From sequence record NC_041919.1: 64,000 nt of DNA; one strand, given 5' to 3'. Both the position numbers and the translations under genes were made by a program. A model generated the notes under the pieces. It did no database searches. It was not told where the DNA came from and saw only the letters and a list, made by a program, of their open reading frames with translations. This DNA comes from Escherichia phage HP3. The first letter of the stretch is position 1, and each line of letters opens with the position of its first letter. Positions 17,219-38,221 of this stretch are shown in pieces.

Positions 17219-18421
17219 ATGAAAGTATGTATTTTTATGGCTCGAGGTCTTGAAGGTTGTGGTGTAACAAAATTCTCACTCGAGCAACGTGATTGGTTTA
17301 TTAAGAATGGTCATGAAGTAACTTTGGTTTATGCTAAAGATAAATCATTTACTCGTACAAGTTCTCATGACCACAAATCATTTTCAATTCCAGTTATTTT
17401 AGCTAAAGAATACGATAAAGCACTTAAGCTGGTAAATGATTGTGATATTCTAATTATTAATTCTGTTCCTGCTACTTCCGTTCAAGAAGCCACGATTAAT
17501 AACTATAAAAAACTTTTAGATAATATTAAACCTTCTATTCGTGTTGTAGTTTATCAGCATGATCATTCTGTTCTTTCTTTGCGTCGAAATTTGGGATTAG
17601 AAGAAACTGTTCGTCGAGCTGATGTTATTTTTAGTCATTCTGATAATGGCGATTTTAATAAAGTTCTGATGAAAGAATGGTATCCAGAAACTGTTTCTCT
17701 GTTTGATGATATTGAAGAAGCACCAACAGTATATAATTTTCAGCCTCCTATGGATATTGCGAAAGTTCGATCAACCTACTGGAAAGATGTTTCTGAAATT
17801 AACATGAATATCAATCGTTGGATTGGTCGTACGACTACATGGAAAGGTTTTTACCAGATGTTTGATTTTCACGAAAAATTCTTAAAACCTGCTGGTAAAT
17901 CCACTGTAATGGAAGGTCTTGAACGTTCCCCTGCTTTTATTGCAATTAAGGAAAAAGGTATTCCGTATGAATATTACGGTAATCGTGAGATCGATAAAAT
18001 GAATCTCACGCCGAATCAACCGGCACAAATCCTAGATTGTTATATTAATAGTGAAATGCTTGAACGAATGAGTAAATCTGGCTTTGGATATCAGTTGAGT
18101 AAACTTAACCAGAAATACTTACAACGCTCACTAGAATATACTCATCTTGAATTAGGTGCTTGCGGTACAATTCCTGTTTTCTGGAAATCTACTGGCGAAA
18201 ATTTAAAATTCCGTGTTGATAATACTCCTTTGACCTCGCATGATAGCGGTATCATTTGGTTTGATGAAAATGACATGGAATCAACATTCGAGCGTATTAA
18301 AGAACTGTCATCTGACCGAGCTCTTTATGACCGTGAGCGAGAAAAAGCATATGAATTTTTGTATCAGCATCAAGATTCAAGCTTCTGCTTTAAAGAACAG
18401 TTTGACATTATTACAAAATAA
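17219..18421 (+). CDS. agt: DNA alpha-glucosyltransferase
   Basis: 400 aa; sequence (MKVCIFMARGLEGCGVTKFSLEQRDWFIKNGHEVTLVY...) matches remembered T4 alpha-gt. Confidence 0.9.
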   Translation: MKVCIFMARGLEGCGVTKFSLEQRDWFIKNGHEVTLVYAKDKSFTRTSSHDHKSFSIPVILAKEYDKALKLVNDCDILIINSVPATSVQEATINNYKKLLDNIKPSIRVVVYQHDHSVLSLRRNLGLEETVRRADVIFSHSDNGDFNKVLMKEWYPETVSLFDDIEEAPTVYNFQPPMDIAKVRSTYWKDVSEINMNINRWIGRTTTWKGFYQMFDFHEKFLKPAGKSTVMEGLERSPAFIAIKEKGIPYEYYGNREIDKMNLTPNQPAQILDCYINSEMLERMSKSGFGYQLSKLNQKYLQRSLEYTHLELGACGTIPVFWKSTGENLKFRVDNTPLTSHDSGIIWFDENDMESTFERIKELSSDRALYDREREKAYEFLYQHQDSSFCFKEQFDIITK

Positions 18422-25375: not shown

Positions 25376-28072
25376 ATGAAAGAATTTTATATCTCTATTG
25401 AAACAGTCGGAAATAACATTGTTGAACGTTATATTGATGAAAACGGAAAGGAACGTACTCGTGAAGTAGAATATCTTCCGACTATGTTTAGGCATTGTAA
25501 GGAAGAGTCAAAATACAAAGACATCTATGGTAAAAACTGCGCTCCTCAAAAATTTCCATCAATGAAAGATGCTCGAGATTGGATGAAACGAATGGAAGAC
25601 ATCGGTCTCGAAGCTCTCGGTATGAACGATTTTAAACTCGCTTATATCAGTGATACATATGGTTCAGAAATTGTTTATGACCGAAAATTTGTTCGTGTAG
25701 CTAACTGTGACATTGAGGTTACTGGTGATAAATTTCCTGACCCAATGAAAGCAGAATATGAAATTGATGCTATTACTCATTATGATTCAATTGATGATCG
25801 TTTTTATGTTTTCGACCTTTTGAATTCAATGTACGGTTCAGTATCAAAATGGGATGCAAAGTTAGCTGCTAAGCTTGACTGTGAAGGTGGTGATGAAGTT
25901 CCTCAAGAAATTCTTGACCGAGTAATTTATATGCCATTCGATAATGAGCGTGATATGCTCATGGAATATATCAATCTCTGGGAACAGAAACGACCTGCTA
26001 TTTTTACTGGTTGGAATATTGAGGGATTTGACGTTCCGTATATCATGAATCGTGTTAAAATGGTTCTCGGTGAACGTAGTATGAAACGCTTCTCTCCAAT
26101 CGGTCGAGTAAAATCTAAACTAATTCAAAATATGTACGGTAGCAAAGAAATTTATTCTATTGATGGCGTATCTATTCTTGATTATTTAGATTTGTACAAG
26201 AAATTCGCTTTTACTAATTTGCCGTCATTCTCTTTGGAATCAGTTGCTCAACATGAAACCAAAAAAGGTAAATTACCGTATGATGGTCCTATTAATAAAC
26301 TTCGTGAGACTAATCATCAACGATACATTAGTTATAACATCATTGACGTAGAATCAGTTCAAGCAATTGATAAAATTCGCGGGTTTATCGATCTAGTTTT
26401 AAGTATGTCTTATTATGCTAAAATGCCTTTTTCTGGTGTAATGAGTCCTATTAAAACTTGGGATGCTATTATTTTTAACTCATTGAAAGGTGAACATAAG
26501 GTTATTCCTCAACAAGGTTCGCATGTTAAACAGAGTTTTCCGGGTGCATTTGTGTTTGAACCTAAACCAATTGCTCGTCGATATATTATGAGTTTTGACT
26601 TGACGTCTCTGTATCCGAGCATTATTCGTCAGGTTAACATTAGTCCTGAGACTATTCGTGGACAATTTAAAGTTCATCCAATTCATGAATATATCGCAGG
26701 AACAGCTCCTAAGCCAAGTGAAGAATATTCTTGTTCTCCGAATGGATGGATGTATGATAAGCATCAAGAAGGTATCATTCCAAAGGAAATCGCTAAAGTA
26801 TTTTTCCAGCGTAAAGACTGGAAAAAGAAAATGTTCGCTGAAGAAATGAATGCCGAAGCTATTAAAAAGATTATTATGAAAGGCGCAGGGTCTTGTTCAA
26901 CTAAACCAGAAGTTGAACGATATGTTAAGTTCAGTGATGATTTCTTAAATGAACTGTCGAATTATACTGAATCTGTTCTCAATAGTTTGATTGAAGAATG
27001 TGAAAAAGCTGCTACACTTGCTAACACAAATCAGCTGAACCGTAAAATTCTCATTAACAGTCTTTATGGTGCTCTTGGTAATATTCATTTCCGTTACTAT
27101 GATTTGCGAAATGCTACTGCTATCACAATTTTTGGCCAAGTTGGTATTCAGTGGATTGCTCGTAAAATTAATGAATATCTGAATAAAGTATGCGGAACTA
27201 ATGGCGAAGATTTCATTGCAGCAGGTGATACTGATTCGGTATATGTTTGTGTAGATAAAGTTATTGAAAAAGTTGGTCTTGACCGATTCAAAGAGCAGAA
27301 CGATTTGGTTGAATTTATGAATCAGTTCGGTAAGAAAAAGATGGAACCTATGATTGATGTTGCATATCGTGAGTTATGTGATTATATGAATAACCGCGAG
27401 CATCTGATGCATATGGACCGTGAAGCTATTTCTTGCCCTCCACTTGGTTCAAAGGGTATTGGTGGATTTTGGAAAGCGAAAAAGCGTTATGCTCTGAACG
27501 TTTATGATATGGAAGATAAACGATTTGCTGAACCGCATCTAAAAATCATGGGTATGGAAACTCAGCAGAGTTCAACACCAAAAGCAGTACAAGAAGCTCT
27601 CGAAGAAAGTATTCGTCGTATTCTTCAGGAAGGTGAAGAGTCTGTCCAAGAATATTACAAGAACTTCGAGAAAGAATATCGTCAACTCGACTATAAAGTT
27701 ATTGCTGAAGTAAAAACTGCGAACGATATAGCGAAATATGATGATAAAGGTTGGCCAGGATTTAAATGTCCGTTCCATATTCGTGGTGTGCTAACTTATC
27801 GTCGAGCTGTTAGCGGTTTAGGTGTAGCTCCAATTTTGGATGGAAATAAAGTAATGGTTCTTCCATTGCGTGAAGGAAATCCATTTGGTGACAAATGCAT
27901 TGCTTGGCCGTCGGGTACAGAACTTCCAAAAGAAATTCGTTCTGACGTACTGTCTTGGATTGACTACTCAACTTTGTTCCAAAAATCGTTTGTTAAACCG
28001 CTTGCGGGCATGTGTGAATCGGCTGGTATGGACTATGAAGAAAAAGCTTCGTTAGACTTCCTGTTTGGCTGA
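25376..28072 (+). CDS. 43: DNA polymerase gp43 (family B)
   Basis: 898 aa; exonuclease and polymerase motifs (DIE, YGDTDS). Confidence 0.97.
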   Translation: MKEFYISIETVGNNIVERYIDENGKERTREVEYLPTMFRHCKEESKYKDIYGKNCAPQKFPSMKDARDWMKRMEDIGLEALGMNDFKLAYISDTYGSEIVYDRKFVRVANCDIEVTGDKFPDPMKAEYEIDAITHYDSIDDRFYVFDLLNSMYGSVSKWDAKLAAKLDCEGGDEVPQEILDRVIYMPFDNERDMLMEYINLWEQKRPAIFTGWNIEGFDVPYIMNRVKMVLGERSMKRFSPIGRVKSKLIQNMYGSKEIYSIDGVSILDYLDLYKKFAFTNLPSFSLESVAQHETKKGKLPYDGPINKLRETNHQRYISYNIIDVESVQAIDKIRGFIDLVLSMSYYAKMPFSGVMSPIKTWDAIIFNSLKGEHKVIPQQGSHVKQSFPGAFVFEPKPIARRYIMSFDLTSLYPSIIRQVNISPETIRGQFKVHPIHEYIAGTAPKPSEEYSCSPNGWMYDKHQEGIIPKEIAKVFFQRKDWKKKMFAEEMNAEAIKKIIMKGAGSCSTKPEVERYVKFSDDFLNELSNYTESVLNSLIEECEKAATLANTNQLNRKILINSLYGALGNIHFRYYDLRNATAITIFGQVGIQWIARKINEYLNKVCGTNGEDFIAAGDTDSVYVCVDKVIEKVGLDRFKEQNDLVEFMNQFGKKKMEPMIDVAYRELCDYMNNREHLMHMDREAISCPPLGSKGIGGFWKAKKRYALNVYDMEDKRFAEPHLKIMGMETQQSSTPKAVQEALEESIRRILQEGEESVQEYYKNFEKEYRQLDYKVIAEVKTANDIAKYDDKGWPGFKCPFHIRGVLTYRRAVSGLGVAPILDGNKVMVLPLREGNPFGDKCIAWPSGTELPKEIRSDVLSWIDYSTLFQKSFVKPLAGMCESAGMDYEEKASLDFLFG

Positions 28073-28085
28073 TAGAATAAATCTA

Positions 28086-28106
28086 GGGACCTCCGGGTCC
28101 CTTTTT
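28086..28106 (+). terminator. rho-independent terminator (GGGACC-TCCG-GGTCCC + T5)
   Basis: hairpin plus T-run after gene 43. Confidence 0.7.
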
Positions 28107-28188
28107 CATACAAGTAATATAAATCTATACTTATGAAAAACAGATGATTCTGGACATTTAGAATTCCCTAAAAAATTTTCACAAAACT

Positions 28189-28218
28189 GTTTACATCTCT
28201 GTTCTTCCATGGTACTAT
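28189..28218 (+). promoter_or_regulatory. T4-type early promoter
   Basis: GTTTAC 28189-28194, TACTAT 28213-28218, A/T-rich upstream tract. Confidence 0.7.
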
Positions 28219-28258
28219 ACAACTATCAACTACTGATACGGATTTGGAGAATAAAATG
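28211..28258 (+). repeat. conserved leader cassette (copy 2 of 3)
   Basis: same as 1142-1186 with a 3-nt insertion; ends in ATG of the downstream ORF. Confidence 0.85.
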
Positions 28259-28492
28259 AAAATTGTTATGGGTTGCTTAGCAGTTTGTTTAGTTGCATTA
28301 GCAGCAGTTCCATTTGTTAGTGTTGAAAATGATACTCAACCTGTGATTGAATCTAGCACTGTTATTCACACTAATGGTAAAATATCAGTTAAAATTGATG
28401 ATAATCTTCATGTGAATACAAATGGATCTTTAGGTGTGCAAATGGGTAATACCTGCATAAGCACTACTGGAGTAATTACTACTTGTATTTGA
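28256..28492 (+). CDS. hypothetical secreted/membrane protein (78 aa)
   Basis: ATG 28256; N-terminal signal-like segment MKIVMGCLAVCLVALAAVPF. Confidence 0.5.
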   Translation: MKIVMGCLAVCLVALAAVPFVSVENDTQPVIESSTVIHTNGKISVKIDDNLHVNTNGSLGVQMGNTCISTTGVITTCI

Positions 28493-28502
28493 GGAAATTA
28501 TT

Positions 28503-28883
28503 ATGAAAATCGCTATTTTGGTTATTGCATTAGGTCTTACTGGTTGTGTAGCTCAAGGACCGGTAGTAAATCAGTCTGATGTAGGAAAAATTGTAAACTG
28601 TTCAAGCAAATTTTATAATCCTAATGTCAAGTGTTATAAAGAAGCTCCAAAACAGACAGTAGAACAAATGCAGGCGAATTTTGACGAGGCTATTCGTCCA
28701 GATGAATCTGCTCAAGCATATCGTAATTCGGATGTAATTACACGCGAAGAAAAAATTGAAAACTACTGCGCCGAGCTTTGGGCTAATTGGGCCAATAATT
28801 ACCAATGGCGTACTGGTAAAAATGCTCCGATGGAGTATGTAGTGAATTCTTATAATTCATGTGTAAAAAATTTGACTAAGTGA
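28503..28883 (+). CDS. putative lipoprotein (126 aa)
   Basis: signal peptide with lipobox LTGC; Cys-containing mature part. Confidence 0.55.
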   Translation: MKIAILVIALGLTGCVAQGPVVNQSDVGKIVNCSSKFYNPNVKCYKEAPKQTVEQMQANFDEAIRPDESAQAYRNSDVITREEKIENYCAELWANWANNYQWRTGKNAPMEYVVNSYNSCVKNLTK

Positions 28884-28890
28884 GGAAAAT

Positions 28891-29142
28891 ATGGAAACTT
28901 TAGTAACAGGTTCAATTTTTATGGTTTTAGTTTCAGGTGTGTTGGCTATTATTATATACATGCTTCCATGGTTTATCGCCTTGATGCGTGGGTCAAAATC
29001 GACAGTAGGAATCTTTTTCACATCTTTACTGTTTAACTGGTCAATTATTGGTTGGTTTATTACATTTATTTGGTCAATTGCGGGTGAAACTAAAAAGTCT
29101 GCACAGCCAAATCAAGTAATTATCATCAGAGAGAAGGAATGA
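28891..29142 (+). CDS. imm: immunity to superinfection membrane protein
   Basis: 83 aa, two hydrophobic segments; size and position between 43 and 42 fit T4 imm. Confidence 0.65.
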   Translation: METLVTGSIFMVLVSGVLAIIIYMLPWFIALMRGSKSTVGIFFTSLLFNWSIIGWFITFIWSIAGETKKSAQPNQVIIIREKE

Positions 29143-29288
29143 AAAGCAAAATTATAGCAGTGTTGCTTTTAATCTTGATGATTATAATAAGTATATACTA
29201 TAGTGTAACGGTTCCTCTTATGATTCCAACTATTATTTTAGGTTGGAGTTTATTACTGTTACAAGTTAAATATGAATGTATCAATTGA
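29139..29288 (+). CDS. hypothetical small membrane protein (49 aa)
   Basis: ATG 29139 overlapping imm stop (ATGA); strongly hydrophobic. Confidence 0.3.
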   Translation: MKSKIIAVLLLILMIIISIYYSVTVPLMIPTIILGWSLLLLQVKYECIN

Positions 29289-29295
29289 GGTTTAA

Positions 29296-30036
29296 ATGAT
29301 TAGTGACTCTATGACAGTTGAAGAAATCCGTCTTCATTTGGGGCTTGCATTAAAAGAAAAAGATTTCGTAGTTGATAAAACTGGTGTTAAAACTATTGAA
29401 ATTATTGGCGCATCATTTGTAGCAGATGAACCGTTTATTTTTGGCGCTCTTAATGATGAATACATTCAGCGTGAACTTGAATGGTATAAATCTAAGAGTT
29501 TGTTTGTTAAAGATATTCCAGGTGAAACACCAAAGATTTGGCAGCAGGTAGCATCTTCTAAAGGCGAAATTAACTCGAATTATGGTTGGGCTATTTGGTC
29601 AGAAGATAACTATGCCCAGTATGATATGTGTTTAGCTGAACTTGGTCAAAATCCTGATTCTCGACGTGGTATCATGATTTATACTCGTCCATCTATGCAG
29701 TTTGACTACAATAAAGATGGTATGTCAGATTTCATGTGTACTAATACAGTACAGTACTTGATTCGTGATAAGAAAGTCAATGCGGTAGTAAGCATGCGCT
29801 CAAATGACGTGGTCTTCGGATTCCGTAATGATTATGCATGGCAAAAATACGTATTAGATAAATTAGTATCTGATTTGAATGCAGGCGATTCAACTCGTCA
29901 GTATAAAGCAGGTTCTATTATATGGAATGTTGGAAGTCTTCATGTATATTCTCGTCATTTTTATTTGGTTGATCATTGGTGGAATACTGGCGAAACTCAT
30001 ATTGTGAAAAAAGACTATAAAGGTGAGTGGAAATGA
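29296..30036 (+). CDS. 42: dCMP hydroxymethylase gp42
   Basis: 246 aa; thymidylate-synthase-like fold sequence matching remembered T4 gp42. Confidence 0.95.
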   Translation: MISDSMTVEEIRLHLGLALKEKDFVVDKTGVKTIEIIGASFVADEPFIFGALNDEYIQRELEWYKSKSLFVKDIPGETPKIWQQVASSKGEINSNYGWAIWSEDNYAQYDMCLAELGQNPDSRRGIMIYTRPSMQFDYNKDGMSDFMCTNTVQYLIRDKKVNAVVSMRSNDVVFGFRNDYAWQKYVLDKLVSDLNAGDSTRQYKAGSIIWNVGSLHVYSRHFYLVDHWWNTGETHIVKKDYKGEWK

Positions 30037-30875
30037 TTCAATTCGTAATTCCAAGTTATCAACGTGTCGGGGCAGTTTCTGCCCTTAATATGTTTCCGAC
30101 TGATTATGAACCCCATATTGTGGTGCGTGAACACGAAGAAAAAGCTTATTATGATGCTTATGGGTCTAGAGCTAAAATTGTAACTATTCCTGATGATGTT
30201 AATGGAATTGCCGGTACTCGTAAAGCAATTACTGATATGTATGCAGGTCAACGAATCTGGATGATTGATGATGATACTACTATTCGTATGAGTTCAATAC
30301 GAAAGAGAGACGATAAACGGCGTGTAGATAAAATTAATCAATTAACTCGTGAACAGTTCTATGAATTAATTCAATACGTTGAAGATGCCATGGATTGCGG
30401 GTATTATCACGGTCATGCTCGTCTACCAATTTTTAAAATTACTTCATCTTGGGGCAATTATCGTGAAAACTCATATGGATTCACGAATACATGGTATGAC
30501 CTCGGAAAACTTACGACAGAACAAATTGGGTATGGAAAAATTGATTTATGCGAAGATATGTATGCATTTCTCAATTTAATTAATCAAGGTTATCCGCATT
30601 TGGCCTTGTTCAAATATCTAGTTGTATCTGGAAAATCACACGCTCCCGGTGGGTGTAGTTCAATTCGTAGTAATTCTAAACATAATAGAGCGCTTGAGCA
30701 AATCAATAGAGAGTTTCCAGAGCAAGCTCGTTGGAAAACATCGAATATTGAAAAACGAAAATCGTTGGGTGAAGAAGACGAGCCATTAAAGGTTCTTCGC
30801 ATGTGTGTTTCGCGTAAAGAAAAATCAGAAGCATTTCATAAGTTTAATGCTATTCATCCAATAGCAGTTGATTAA
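30033..30875 (+). CDS. glycosyltransferase at the beta-gt locus (candidate beta-glucosyl-HMC-alpha-glucosyltransferase)
   Basis: 280 aa from ATG 30033 (ATGA overlap with gene 42); DxD-like WMIDDDTT motif; unrelated to remembered T4 beta-gt sequence (351 aa). Confidence 0.65.
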   Translation: MIQFVIPSYQRVGAVSALNMFPTDYEPHIVVREHEEKAYYDAYGSRAKIVTIPDDVNGIAGTRKAITDMYAGQRIWMIDDDTTIRMSSIRKRDDKRRVDKINQLTREQFYELIQYVEDAMDCGYYHGHARLPIFKITSSWGNYRENSYGFTNTWYDLGKLTTEQIGYGKIDLCEDMYAFLNLINQGYPHLALFKYLVVSGKSHAPGGCSSIRSNSKHNRALEQINREFPEQARWKTSNIEKRKSLGEEDEPLKVLRMCVSRKEKSEAFHKFNAIHPIAVD

Positions 30876-30899
30876 TGCCTAAATTTATTGTGTTATAAT
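30874..30899 (+). promoter_or_regulatory. possible middle promoter upstream of uvsX
   Basis: imperfect MotA box ATGCCTAAA (30875-30883), 10-nt spacer, TATAAT (30894-30899). Confidence 0.3.
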
Positions 30900-30952
30900 T
30901 ACTATATCTTTAACCAGTGAGGAAAATATAATGATGCCTATGGAAAAAATGA

Positions 30953-32134
30953 ATGTCTATTGCAGATTTAAAATCCCGTTTGATTAAAGCTTCCACTTCT
31001 AAAATGACTGCTGAACTGACTACATCTAAATTCTTTAATGAAAAGGATGTAATTCGTACAAAAATTCCAATGCTTAATATCGCTATTTCTGGTGCGATTG
31101 ATGGCGGTATGCAGTCTGGTTTAACTATTTTTGCAGGGCCTTCTAAACACTTTAAATCAAATATGTCTTTGACTATGGTTGCGGCATATTTGAACAAATA
31201 TCCTGACGCGGTTTGTCTATTCTATGATAGCGAATTTGGTATTACTCCAGCTTATTTGCGATCCATGGGAGTTGACCCGGAACGTGTAATTCATACGCCA
31301 ATTCAATCAGTTGAACAGCTGAAAATTGATATGGTGAATCAGCTTGAAGCTATTGAGCGTGGTGAAAAAGTTATTGTATTCATCGATTCAATTGGTAATA
31401 TGGCTTCTAAGAAAGAAACTGAAGATGCCTTGAATGAAAAATCTGTGGCAGATATGACTCGTGCTAAATCACTGAAGTCATTATTCCGTATCGTTACTCC
31501 TTATTTTAGCATTAAAAATATTCCATGCGTTGCGGTTAACCATACAATTGAAACAATTGAAATGTTTAGTAAAACCGTGATGACAGGTGGTACAGGCGTA
31601 ATGTATTCGGCTGATACCGTATTCATTATCGGTAAGCGTCAGATTAAAGATGGTTCTGATCTTCAGGGGTATCAATTTGTTCTAAATGTAGAAAAATCTC
31701 GTACCGTTAAAGAAAAAAGTAAATTCTTTATTGATGTTAAATTTGACGGTGGTATCGATCCTTATTCTGGATTGTTAGATATGGCTCTAGAATTAGGATT
31801 TGTAGTAAAACCTAAGAATGGTTGGTATGCTCGTGAATTTCTTGACGAAGAAACCGGCGAGATGATTCGCGAAGAAAAATCTTGGCGTGCAAAAGATACT
31901 AACTGCACTACATTCTGGGGTCCTTTATTTAAGCATCAACCATTCCGAGATGCTATTAAACGTGCTTATCAGTTAGGTGCTATTGATAGTAATGAAATTG
32001 TTGAAGCTGAAGTTGATGAATTGATTAACTCAAAGGTTGAAAAATTTAAATCTCCAGAAAGTAAAAGTAAATCAGCTGCTGATTTAGAAACTGACCTCGA
32101 ACAGTTAAGTGATATGGAAGAATTTAATGAATAA
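30953..32134 (+). CDS. uvsX: recombinase UvsX (RecA-like)
   Basis: 393 aa; Walker A GPSKHFKS; matches remembered T4 UvsX. Confidence 0.95.
   Translation: MSIADLKSRLIKASTSKMTAELTTSKFFNEKDVIRTKIPMLNIAISGAIDGGMQSGLTIFAGPSKHFKSNMSLTMVAAYLNKYPDAVCLFYDSEFGITPAYLRSMGVDPERVIHTPIQSVEQLKIDMVNQLEAIERGEKVIVFIDSIGNMASKKETEDALNEKSVADMTRAKSLKSLFRIVTPYFSIKNIPCVAVNHTIETIEMFSKTVMTGGTGVMYSADTVFIIGKRQIKDGSDLQGYQFVLNVEKSRTVKEKSKFFIDVKFDGGIDPYSGLLDMALELGFVVKPKNGWYAREFLDEETGEMIREEKSWRAKDTNCTTFWGPLFKHQPFRDAIKRAYQLGAIDSNEIVEAEVDELINSKVEKFKSPESKSKSAADLETDLEQLSDMEEFNE

Positions 32135-36881: not shown

Positions 36882-38221
<1,340 letters not shown>

Follow-up and report, generated by a model that had tools for sequence, protein, structure and literature searches.

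The gene between gene 42 and uvsX of Escherichia phage HP3 as a predicted T2/T6-type beta-glucosyl-HMC-alpha-glucosyltransferase

The interval between gene 42 and uvsX

In T4, the interval between gene 42 and uvsX holds b-gt, the gene for beta-glucosyltransferase (351 aa), and the homing endonuclease gene segA. The question raised by the same interval in Escherichia phage HP3 is which enzyme it encodes and which sugars that enzyme would place on the phage DNA. The locus was analysed within a 64-kb window (the whole stretch of 64,000 nucleotides). An ORF of 280 aa had been placed between gene 42 and uvsX by the initial annotation, and it was recovered at 30033-30875 on the + strand (280 codons plus stop), with uvsX at 30953-32134; the CDS, termed ba-gt, ggt or TAGT, was defined by its ORF, by nucleotide and amino acid identity and by Pfam and PHROG matches. 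In the mechanical ORF list the frame starts 6 nt further upstream at a GTG (30027; 282 aa); in HP3.1, SG1, T2 and the Durham phages, as in every annotated orthologue, the start is the ATG at 30033. By sequence reading, the translation start region was placed at 30020-30036 (+), where a Shine-Dalgarno-like element, AAGGTGAG (30020-30027), lies 5 nt 5' of the ba-gt ATG, and this start codon and the gene 42 stop codon (TGA) overlap in ATGA (30033-30036). The same 4-nt overlap is found in T2 and T6, whereas gene 42 and b-gt of T4 are spaced by 23 nt. Judged from the sequence, the ATGA overlap probably couples translation of ba-gt to that of gene 42.

Gene 42 (29296-30036, +) encodes dCMP hydroxymethylase, the enzyme for the hmC precursor, and its match to the thymidylate-synthase family (Pfam PF00303, 1e-15) is the one expected for a dCMP hydroxymethylase. 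Locally the genes run 43, an 82-aa ORF, imm.1, imm, a 49-aa ORF, 42, ba-gt, uvsX, 40 and 41, and the order 43-imm.1-imm-42-X-uvsX-40-41 is common to this phage, T2, T6 and SG1. A promoter scan of positions 28000-31200 gave 17 matches with 14.4 expected, which is not above chance, and the sole match of a terminator scan of the same region was a terminator-like hairpin at 28085-28102, after gene 43; these two scans of 28000-31200 yielded no ba-gt-specific expression signal. Homopolymer 'contingency' runs of at least 6 bases were not found in ba-gt. The 24-kb stretch around the gene is 100% identical to Escherichia phage HP3.1 (OK275722, Tequatrovirus), and the ba-gt nucleotides are 100% identical to HP31_0150 of that phage, annotated as 'glucosyl transferase'. 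In record OK275722 the source is given as 'in vitro directed evolution'.

For comparison with T4, the beta-gt protein (351 aa, from NC_000866) was used as query. The ORF had initially been described as unrelated to T4 beta-gt, and BLASTP agreed, its alignments being no more than chance fragments (lowest E = 4.1, 35 residues); with T4 beta-gt and segA as tblastn queries, the whole 64-kb window gave no significant match. By blastn, gene 42 has 96.6% nucleotide identity to T4 up to position 30018, 18 nt short of the end of the gene, where homology stops; it restarts at 30965 in the first uvsX codons. The segment in between (30019-30964, +) comprises the last 6 codons of gene 42, ba-gt, the intergenic region and the first codons of uvsX, and from these break points it is a 946-bp non-T4 cassette replacing the 1941 bp of b-gt and segA in T4 (T4 25496-23556). 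The C-terminus of gp42 reads ...KKDYKGEWK here, ...KKDYNGEWK in T2 and ...KKDYVGKYA in T4.

Family assignment, predicted fold and conserved residues

Aligned over its full length and with the frame intact, the window protein is identical to the T2 protein at 270 of 280 residues and to the T6 protein at 268 of 280 (96% in both cases), so that ten to twelve substitutions separate it from these enzymes. Megablast found ba-gt in 477 phage records, 475 of them with the full-length gene and all but four at 90-100% identity; about 475 phage records hold a full-length gene at 90-100% nucleotide identity, which excludes a chance reading frame. Orthologues are named 'beta-glucosyl-HMC-alpha-glucosyltransferase' in RefSeq, and the PHROG of the same name (PHROG 842) was matched at 5.9e-88. 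In Pfam, the protein matched PF20691 (TET-associated glycosyltransferase, TAGT) with 40 bits (gathering threshold 27.5 bits, E = 5.4e-10), residues 3-207 covering profile positions 2-205 of 205 and about 70 residues extending beyond the model at the C-terminus. The relatives found by search likewise have PF20691 as their precomputed domain. NCBIfam has no model for the protein.

The partner gene a-gt (17219-18421, +) encodes a DNA alpha-glucosyltransferase, whose product, alpha-glucosyl-hmC, is the ba-gt acceptor; it is identical to T6 a-gt at 398 of 400 residues and matches PF11440 at 5.6e-259. An A6 run lies at nt 289-294 of this gene. Full-length identity, the position between gene 42 and uvsX, the a-gt partner and the absence of b-gt from the 64-kb window place the ORF in the orthologous group of the T2/T6 genes, with which it shares the length of 280 aa, the locus, the 4-nt overlap and the partner. 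A T2/T6-type enzyme had been expected at this position, and the 96% amino acid identity, the gene 42-X-uvsX arrangement and the PHROG 842 match all accord with it. The reading that 30033-30875 encodes the T2/T6-type beta-glucosyl-HMC-alpha-glucosyltransferase (ba-gt, ggt, 'TAGT'; PF20691) is given a probability of roughly 93%. Its activity (glucosyl-DNA beta-glucosyltransferase) is presumably EC 2.4.1.28, and the T2 and T6 genes were reportedly cloned and sequenced by Winkler and Rueger in 1993. Unlike a TAGT that accompanies a TET/JBP dioxygenase, the protein here belongs to the dCMP-hydroxymethylase/a-gt pathway of the T-even phages. The gene at the gene 42-uvsX locus is a textbook T2/T6-type feature, already annotated and published, and is no new occupant; that most Tequatroviruses have it there has been known for a long time and was described again recently.

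Searching 1.84 billion representatives with a profile returned 2159 relatives at E <= 1e-3. An AlphaFold2 model built from a 124-sequence alignment had a mean pLDDT of 94.4 and a pTM of 0.92 and superseded an earlier AlphaFold2 run with a 10-sequence alignment (pLDDT 68.7). The initial annotation had pointed to a GT-A fold from the DxD-like motif WMIDDDTT. Motif and fold were both borne out: WMIDDDTT occupies residues 76-83, its DDD being encoded at 30267-30275, and the model is a single GT-A domain with GT-A structural neighbours. A PDB search with the single protein sequence gave no match, and one with the 124-sequence profile gave chance or borderline matches only (de novo TIM barrels, polycystin and 9jma, the last at E = 0.074); at the level of sequence, no solved structure of the ba-gt family is detectable. 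Inverting GT-A enzymes of GT2 type such as AvpGT (9jma), TarS (5tze), TarP (6h1j), BcsA (4p00) and SpsA (1h7l) have only 8-15% identity to the window protein, which differs from GT2-type enzymes in its acceptor (a sugar on duplex DNA) and in having no membrane or carrier-lipid domain. T6 TAGT modelled with AlphaFold3 was likewise assigned to GT-A, as a sister to GT2 (PMC13216743).

Five residues (R11, D80, D175, G186 and G207) are invariant in 124/124 relatives, and the window protein keeps all family-invariant residues. R11 closes the N-terminal segment I6-P-S-Y-Q-R11 (30048-30065, +), a GT2-like 'IPxYxR' strand and loop for putative nucleotide-sugar binding, in which I6 is conserved in 120/124 and P7 in 118/124 sequences. 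The DxD motif DDD (D79-D81; 30267-30275, +) is encoded by a (GAT)3 repeat, with D79 and D81 each present in 122 of 124 sequences and D80 in all, and in the model it comes immediately after strand 74-78, where the DxD motif is canonically found in GT-A enzymes, at the end of a central beta-strand. E174-D175 (30552-30557, +), an 'ED' motif and candidate catalytic base, lies at the N-terminus of helix 174-184 in the model (D175 in 124/124, E174 in 97/124). The fourth segment, G206-G-C-S-S-I-R212 (30648-30668, +), is a family-specific conserved loop (G206 123/124, G207 124/124, R212 122/124) that possibly binds the acceptor or the diphosphate. In the weak profile alignment with AvpGT (9jma; a GT2 beta-1,3-glucosyltransferase, E = 0.074), IPSYxR fell on IPTYNR and lDDD on LDDDD, and eD fell on EED with a very low score (domain score -2.9).

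Proposed pathway and alternative readings

In the proposed pathway, gene 42 would supply hydroxymethyl-dCMP, and after replication the a-gt product (17219-18421) would attach an alpha-linked glucose to hmC in the DNA. The ba-gt enzyme, predicted from the model to be a small single-domain GT-A protein, would then use UDP-glucose to add a further glucose, beta-linked, at the 6-OH of the first, yielding gentiobiosyl-hmC. By analogy with inverting GT2-type enzymes, DDD (D79-D81) may bind a divalent metal and the UDP diphosphate, and the IPSYQR strand and loop may bind the nucleotide; D175 of the ED motif would probably act as general base on the acceptor hydroxyl, activating it for the formation of a beta-glycoside from UDP-alpha-glucose. 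Such an inverting mechanism fits, since formation of a beta-1,6 linkage from UDP-alpha-glucose requires inversion. Once diglucosylated, the base would no longer be exposed as alpha-glucosyl-hmC to defences that recognise its monoglucosylated form. The product and the deletion phenotype ascribed here to ba-gt are taken by analogy from the literature and not from this sequence.

T2 and T6 carry beta-1,6-glucosyl-alpha-glucosyl (gentiobiosyl) hmC made by homologous ba-gt enzymes (PMC6024577), at levels of 5% in T2 and 72% in T6 (PMC6024577; bioRxiv 10.64898/2026.02.25.707755), and the T2/T6 enzyme has been equated with PF20691 (PMC13216743). T6 delta-ba-gt has alpha-glucosyl-hmC only and is more sensitive to the glycosylase Brig1, which in vitro degrades its DNA, unlike wild-type T6 DNA (PMC11078745); DNA of T6 delta-g-gt becomes a substrate of the glucose-removing protein BapA (bioRxiv 10.64898/2026.02.25.707755). 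Of the phages that have a-gt or b-gt, most also have a TAGT as its partner, the T4 combination of a-gt with b-gt being rare (6/753 genomes; PMC13216743), and in phages of the Durham Collection the TAGT position is syntenic with T4 b-gt (PMC13390438). In that collection of data, HPLC/MS of phages EL, BGP and Geo gave 5-hmdC, alpha-glucosyl-mdC and alpha-gentiobiosyl-mdC at about 1:2:2, and seven other Tequatroviruses had about one third hmC and about two thirds gentiobiosyl (PMC13390438).

The window protein is identical to the TAGT of vB_Eco_EL, Geo and BGP at 279 of 280 residues (sole difference N19D); the locus in these phages is as here, and the phages are different isolates. By analogy with them, the DNA of HP3.1 perhaps carries a mixture of hmC, alpha-glucosyl-hmC and gentiobiosyl-hmC near 1:2:2. 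Among enzymes that are 96-100% identical, diglucosylation ranges from about 5% (T2) through about 40% (EL/Geo/BGP) to about 67-72% (T6/Solly), and because of this wide variation sequence alone has no power to give the sugar ratio.

Three other readings of the gene were weighed against the T2/T6-type assignment. A TAGT-family transferase might have another specificity in this phage, with a different donor, direct glycosylation of hmC or a different acceptor in place of gentiobiosyl-hmC synthesis, as PF20691 is a diverse family with many members (2159 representatives at E <= 1e-3) and as the pairing of TAGT homologues with a-gt or b-gt, or their occurrence alone, implies varied specificities (PMC13216743). 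This is very unlikely given the 96% identity to the characterised T2 and T6 enzymes, the 279/280 identity to enzymes of phages that have gentiobiosyl-hmC in their DNA, and a locus and a-gt partner identical to those of T2/T6. The copy might also look intact and be weakly active or inactive, leaving the DNA essentially monoglucosylated as in T2, whose 96%-identical enzyme is accompanied by only about 5% gentiobiosyl-hmC; ba-gt lesions in laboratory stocks of T6 (MH550421, AP018814) further indicate that the gene is dispensable in culture. Every invariant residue is kept here, however, including the R11 that T2 has lost, and the 279/280-identical EL, Geo and BGP enzymes go with about 40% gentiobiosyl-hmC, so that a defective copy is considered highly improbable.

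A diverged T4 beta-gt homologue (GT-B, GT63) that places beta-glucose directly on hmC has in its favour solely the common position between gene 42 and uvsX, and its probability is negligible. The two enzymes are alike in their equivalent genome position, in UDP-glucose-dependent DNA modification and in the beta linkage; they differ in family and fold, T4 beta-gt being GT63, PF09198 and GT-B and the window protein a predicted GT-A enzyme, and in the acceptor, which is hmC for T4 beta-gt and alpha-glucosyl-hmC for ba-gt. Against homology stand the different length and the lack of sequence similarity (E = 4.1), the predicted GT-A fold with GT-B enzymes absent from the top structural matches, and a Pfam result of PF20691 only, with no b-gt PF09198. 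Membership of the T4 beta-gt family was ruled out by BLASTP, by the structural matches and by the single-domain GT-A model.

Alleles and the degree of diglucosylation

The ba-gt alleles of the window, EL, Geo, BGP, T2, T6, Solly and EH2 were compared, the last two having been obtained by a search with the T6 allele. Seven positions split these sequences into two classes. The window, EL, Geo and BGP have V at position 50, I at 89, K at 95, R at 97, I at 101, S at 202 and H at 203, where T2, T6, Solly and EH2 have I, M, R, C, V, A and Q, respectively. Among the phages with nucleoside data, the gentiobiosyl fraction is about 40% in the EL-type class and about 67-72% in T6, Solly and EH2; these are six phages from two groups of relatives, and the pattern is a lead. 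Within the T6/Solly-type class T2 stands apart, at about 5%.

R11H, together with P251S, is present in the two independent T2 assemblies; position 11 is Arg in 124/124 relatives. A hypomorphic R11H enzyme would be a simple and testable explanation, suggested by the sequence, of the low T2 level. R11H of T2 was not found discussed in the cited literature. In T6 record AP018814 one GAT of the (GAT)3 repeat is lost, which turns DDD into DD; in T6 record MH550421 DDD is complete, codon Q10 is amber and M20 is the annotated start of ggt. With lesions in both T6 assemblies, ba-gt appears to tolerate them in laboratory stocks.

It is tentatively proposed, as an idea more doubtful than probable, that the ba-gt alleles set the degree of diglucosylation, the EL-type giving about 40%, the T6/Solly-type going near completion and T2 being low through R11H; the correlation comes from six phages in two phylogenetic groups, and relatedness confounds it, as do differences that may exist in expression or in a-gt. 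The R11H change of T2, the lesions in T6 stocks and the two allele classes that track diglucosylation are possible additions to the known picture of ba-gt.

That the DNA sugar pattern affects sensitivity to host restriction, as had been stated at the outset for this locus, is documented (PMC11078745, PMC13216743, PMC13390438). For T-even phages, the hmC sugar pattern decides attack by McrBC/McrA, GmrSD/BrxU/TgvAB, the glycosylases Brig1 and BapA, and CRISPR-Cas, and telling the T2/T6-type set (a-gt with ba-gt) from the T4-type set (a-gt with b-gt) is practically useful for therapeutic phages such as HP3.1. If the proposed effect of the alleles is true, the sugar pattern and the sensitivity to Brig1, BapA and GmrSD-type defences would be predictable from ba-gt alone.

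Allele classes and T6 records of ba-gt

The T2/T6-type beta-glucosyl-HMC-alpha-glucosyltransferase gene (ba-gt, window 30033-30875) was compared with the corresponding genes of five other phage loci (L005, L006, L007, L010 and L011). Two allele classes were distinguished, which are set by seven linked substitutions at positions 50, 89, 95, 97, 101, 202 and 203. These classes match the two modification groups measured in the Durham phages (PMC13390438), one at about 1:2:2 and the other about two thirds gentiobiosyl, a correlation of allele and modification that is confounded by phylogeny.

The ba-gt sequence is not the same in the two T6 records. In AP018814 (L004:4135-4974), (GAT)2 stands in place of (GAT)3 and the catalytic motif is reduced to DD; in MH550421 (L009:2138-2980), DDD is kept and codon 10 is changed from CAG to the amber codon TAG. 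The ggt annotation of the latter record begins at M20 and lacks the invariant R11. In a supE host, Gln would be restored at codon 10 of this gene.

Neighbouring ORFs and a terminator-like hairpin

A hydrophobic ORF of 49 aa (MKSKIIAVLLLILMIIISIYYSVTVPLMIPTIILGWSLLLLQVKYECIN; window 29139-29288, + strand) takes up the apparent gap that separates imm from gene 42; its ATG overlaps the stop of imm. It matched PHROG 3610, and its reading frame is unbroken in T4, T2, T6 and SG1, where the amino acid changes are conservative; it carries no annotation in NC_000866, NC_054936 or HP3.1. Between gene 43 and imm.1 lies an ORF of 82 aa with a signal-peptide-like N-terminus (28244-28492, + strand; PHROG 4189), in a segment (about 28270-28502) that T2, SG1 and HP3.1 share and T4 lacks. 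Directly downstream of the stop codon of gene 43, a terminator-like hairpin (28085-28102, + strand) is formed by a perfect, GC-rich 7-bp stem (AGGGACC TCCG GGTCCCT) and followed by a T run.

Immediately upstream of the Dam methyltransferase gene (37442-38221, PF02086), and abutting it, is an ORF of 186 aa (36882-37442, + strand) that falls in PHROG 8706. Its Pfam match to DpnII, a restriction endonuclease of GATC specificity, is weak and falls below the threshold (16.8 bits, where the cutoff is 23 bits; E = 0.0045). This match may be due to chance, but it is curious that the ORF is paired with a gene for a GATC methylase.

Glucosyltransferase variants in T2

The window copy of the DNA alpha-glucosyltransferase gene (a-gt) carries an A6 run at 17507-17512 (nt 289-294 of the gene), whereas the run at the same place in T2 is longer (A7 in AP018813) and has been described as a frameshift-prone contingency locus (PMC12633550). 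Homopolymers of at least 6 bases were also sought in ba-gt, and none was found. Both T2 assemblies (AP018813, L003:4283-5125; MH751506, L012:2286-3128) encode His at residue 11 of ba-gt, a position occupied by Arg in all 124 of the diverse relatives in the family and in each of the other T-even copies examined. A second T2 change is P251S. The His at residue 11 may lie behind the low gentiobiosyl-hmC content of T2 (~5%, vs 72% in T6).
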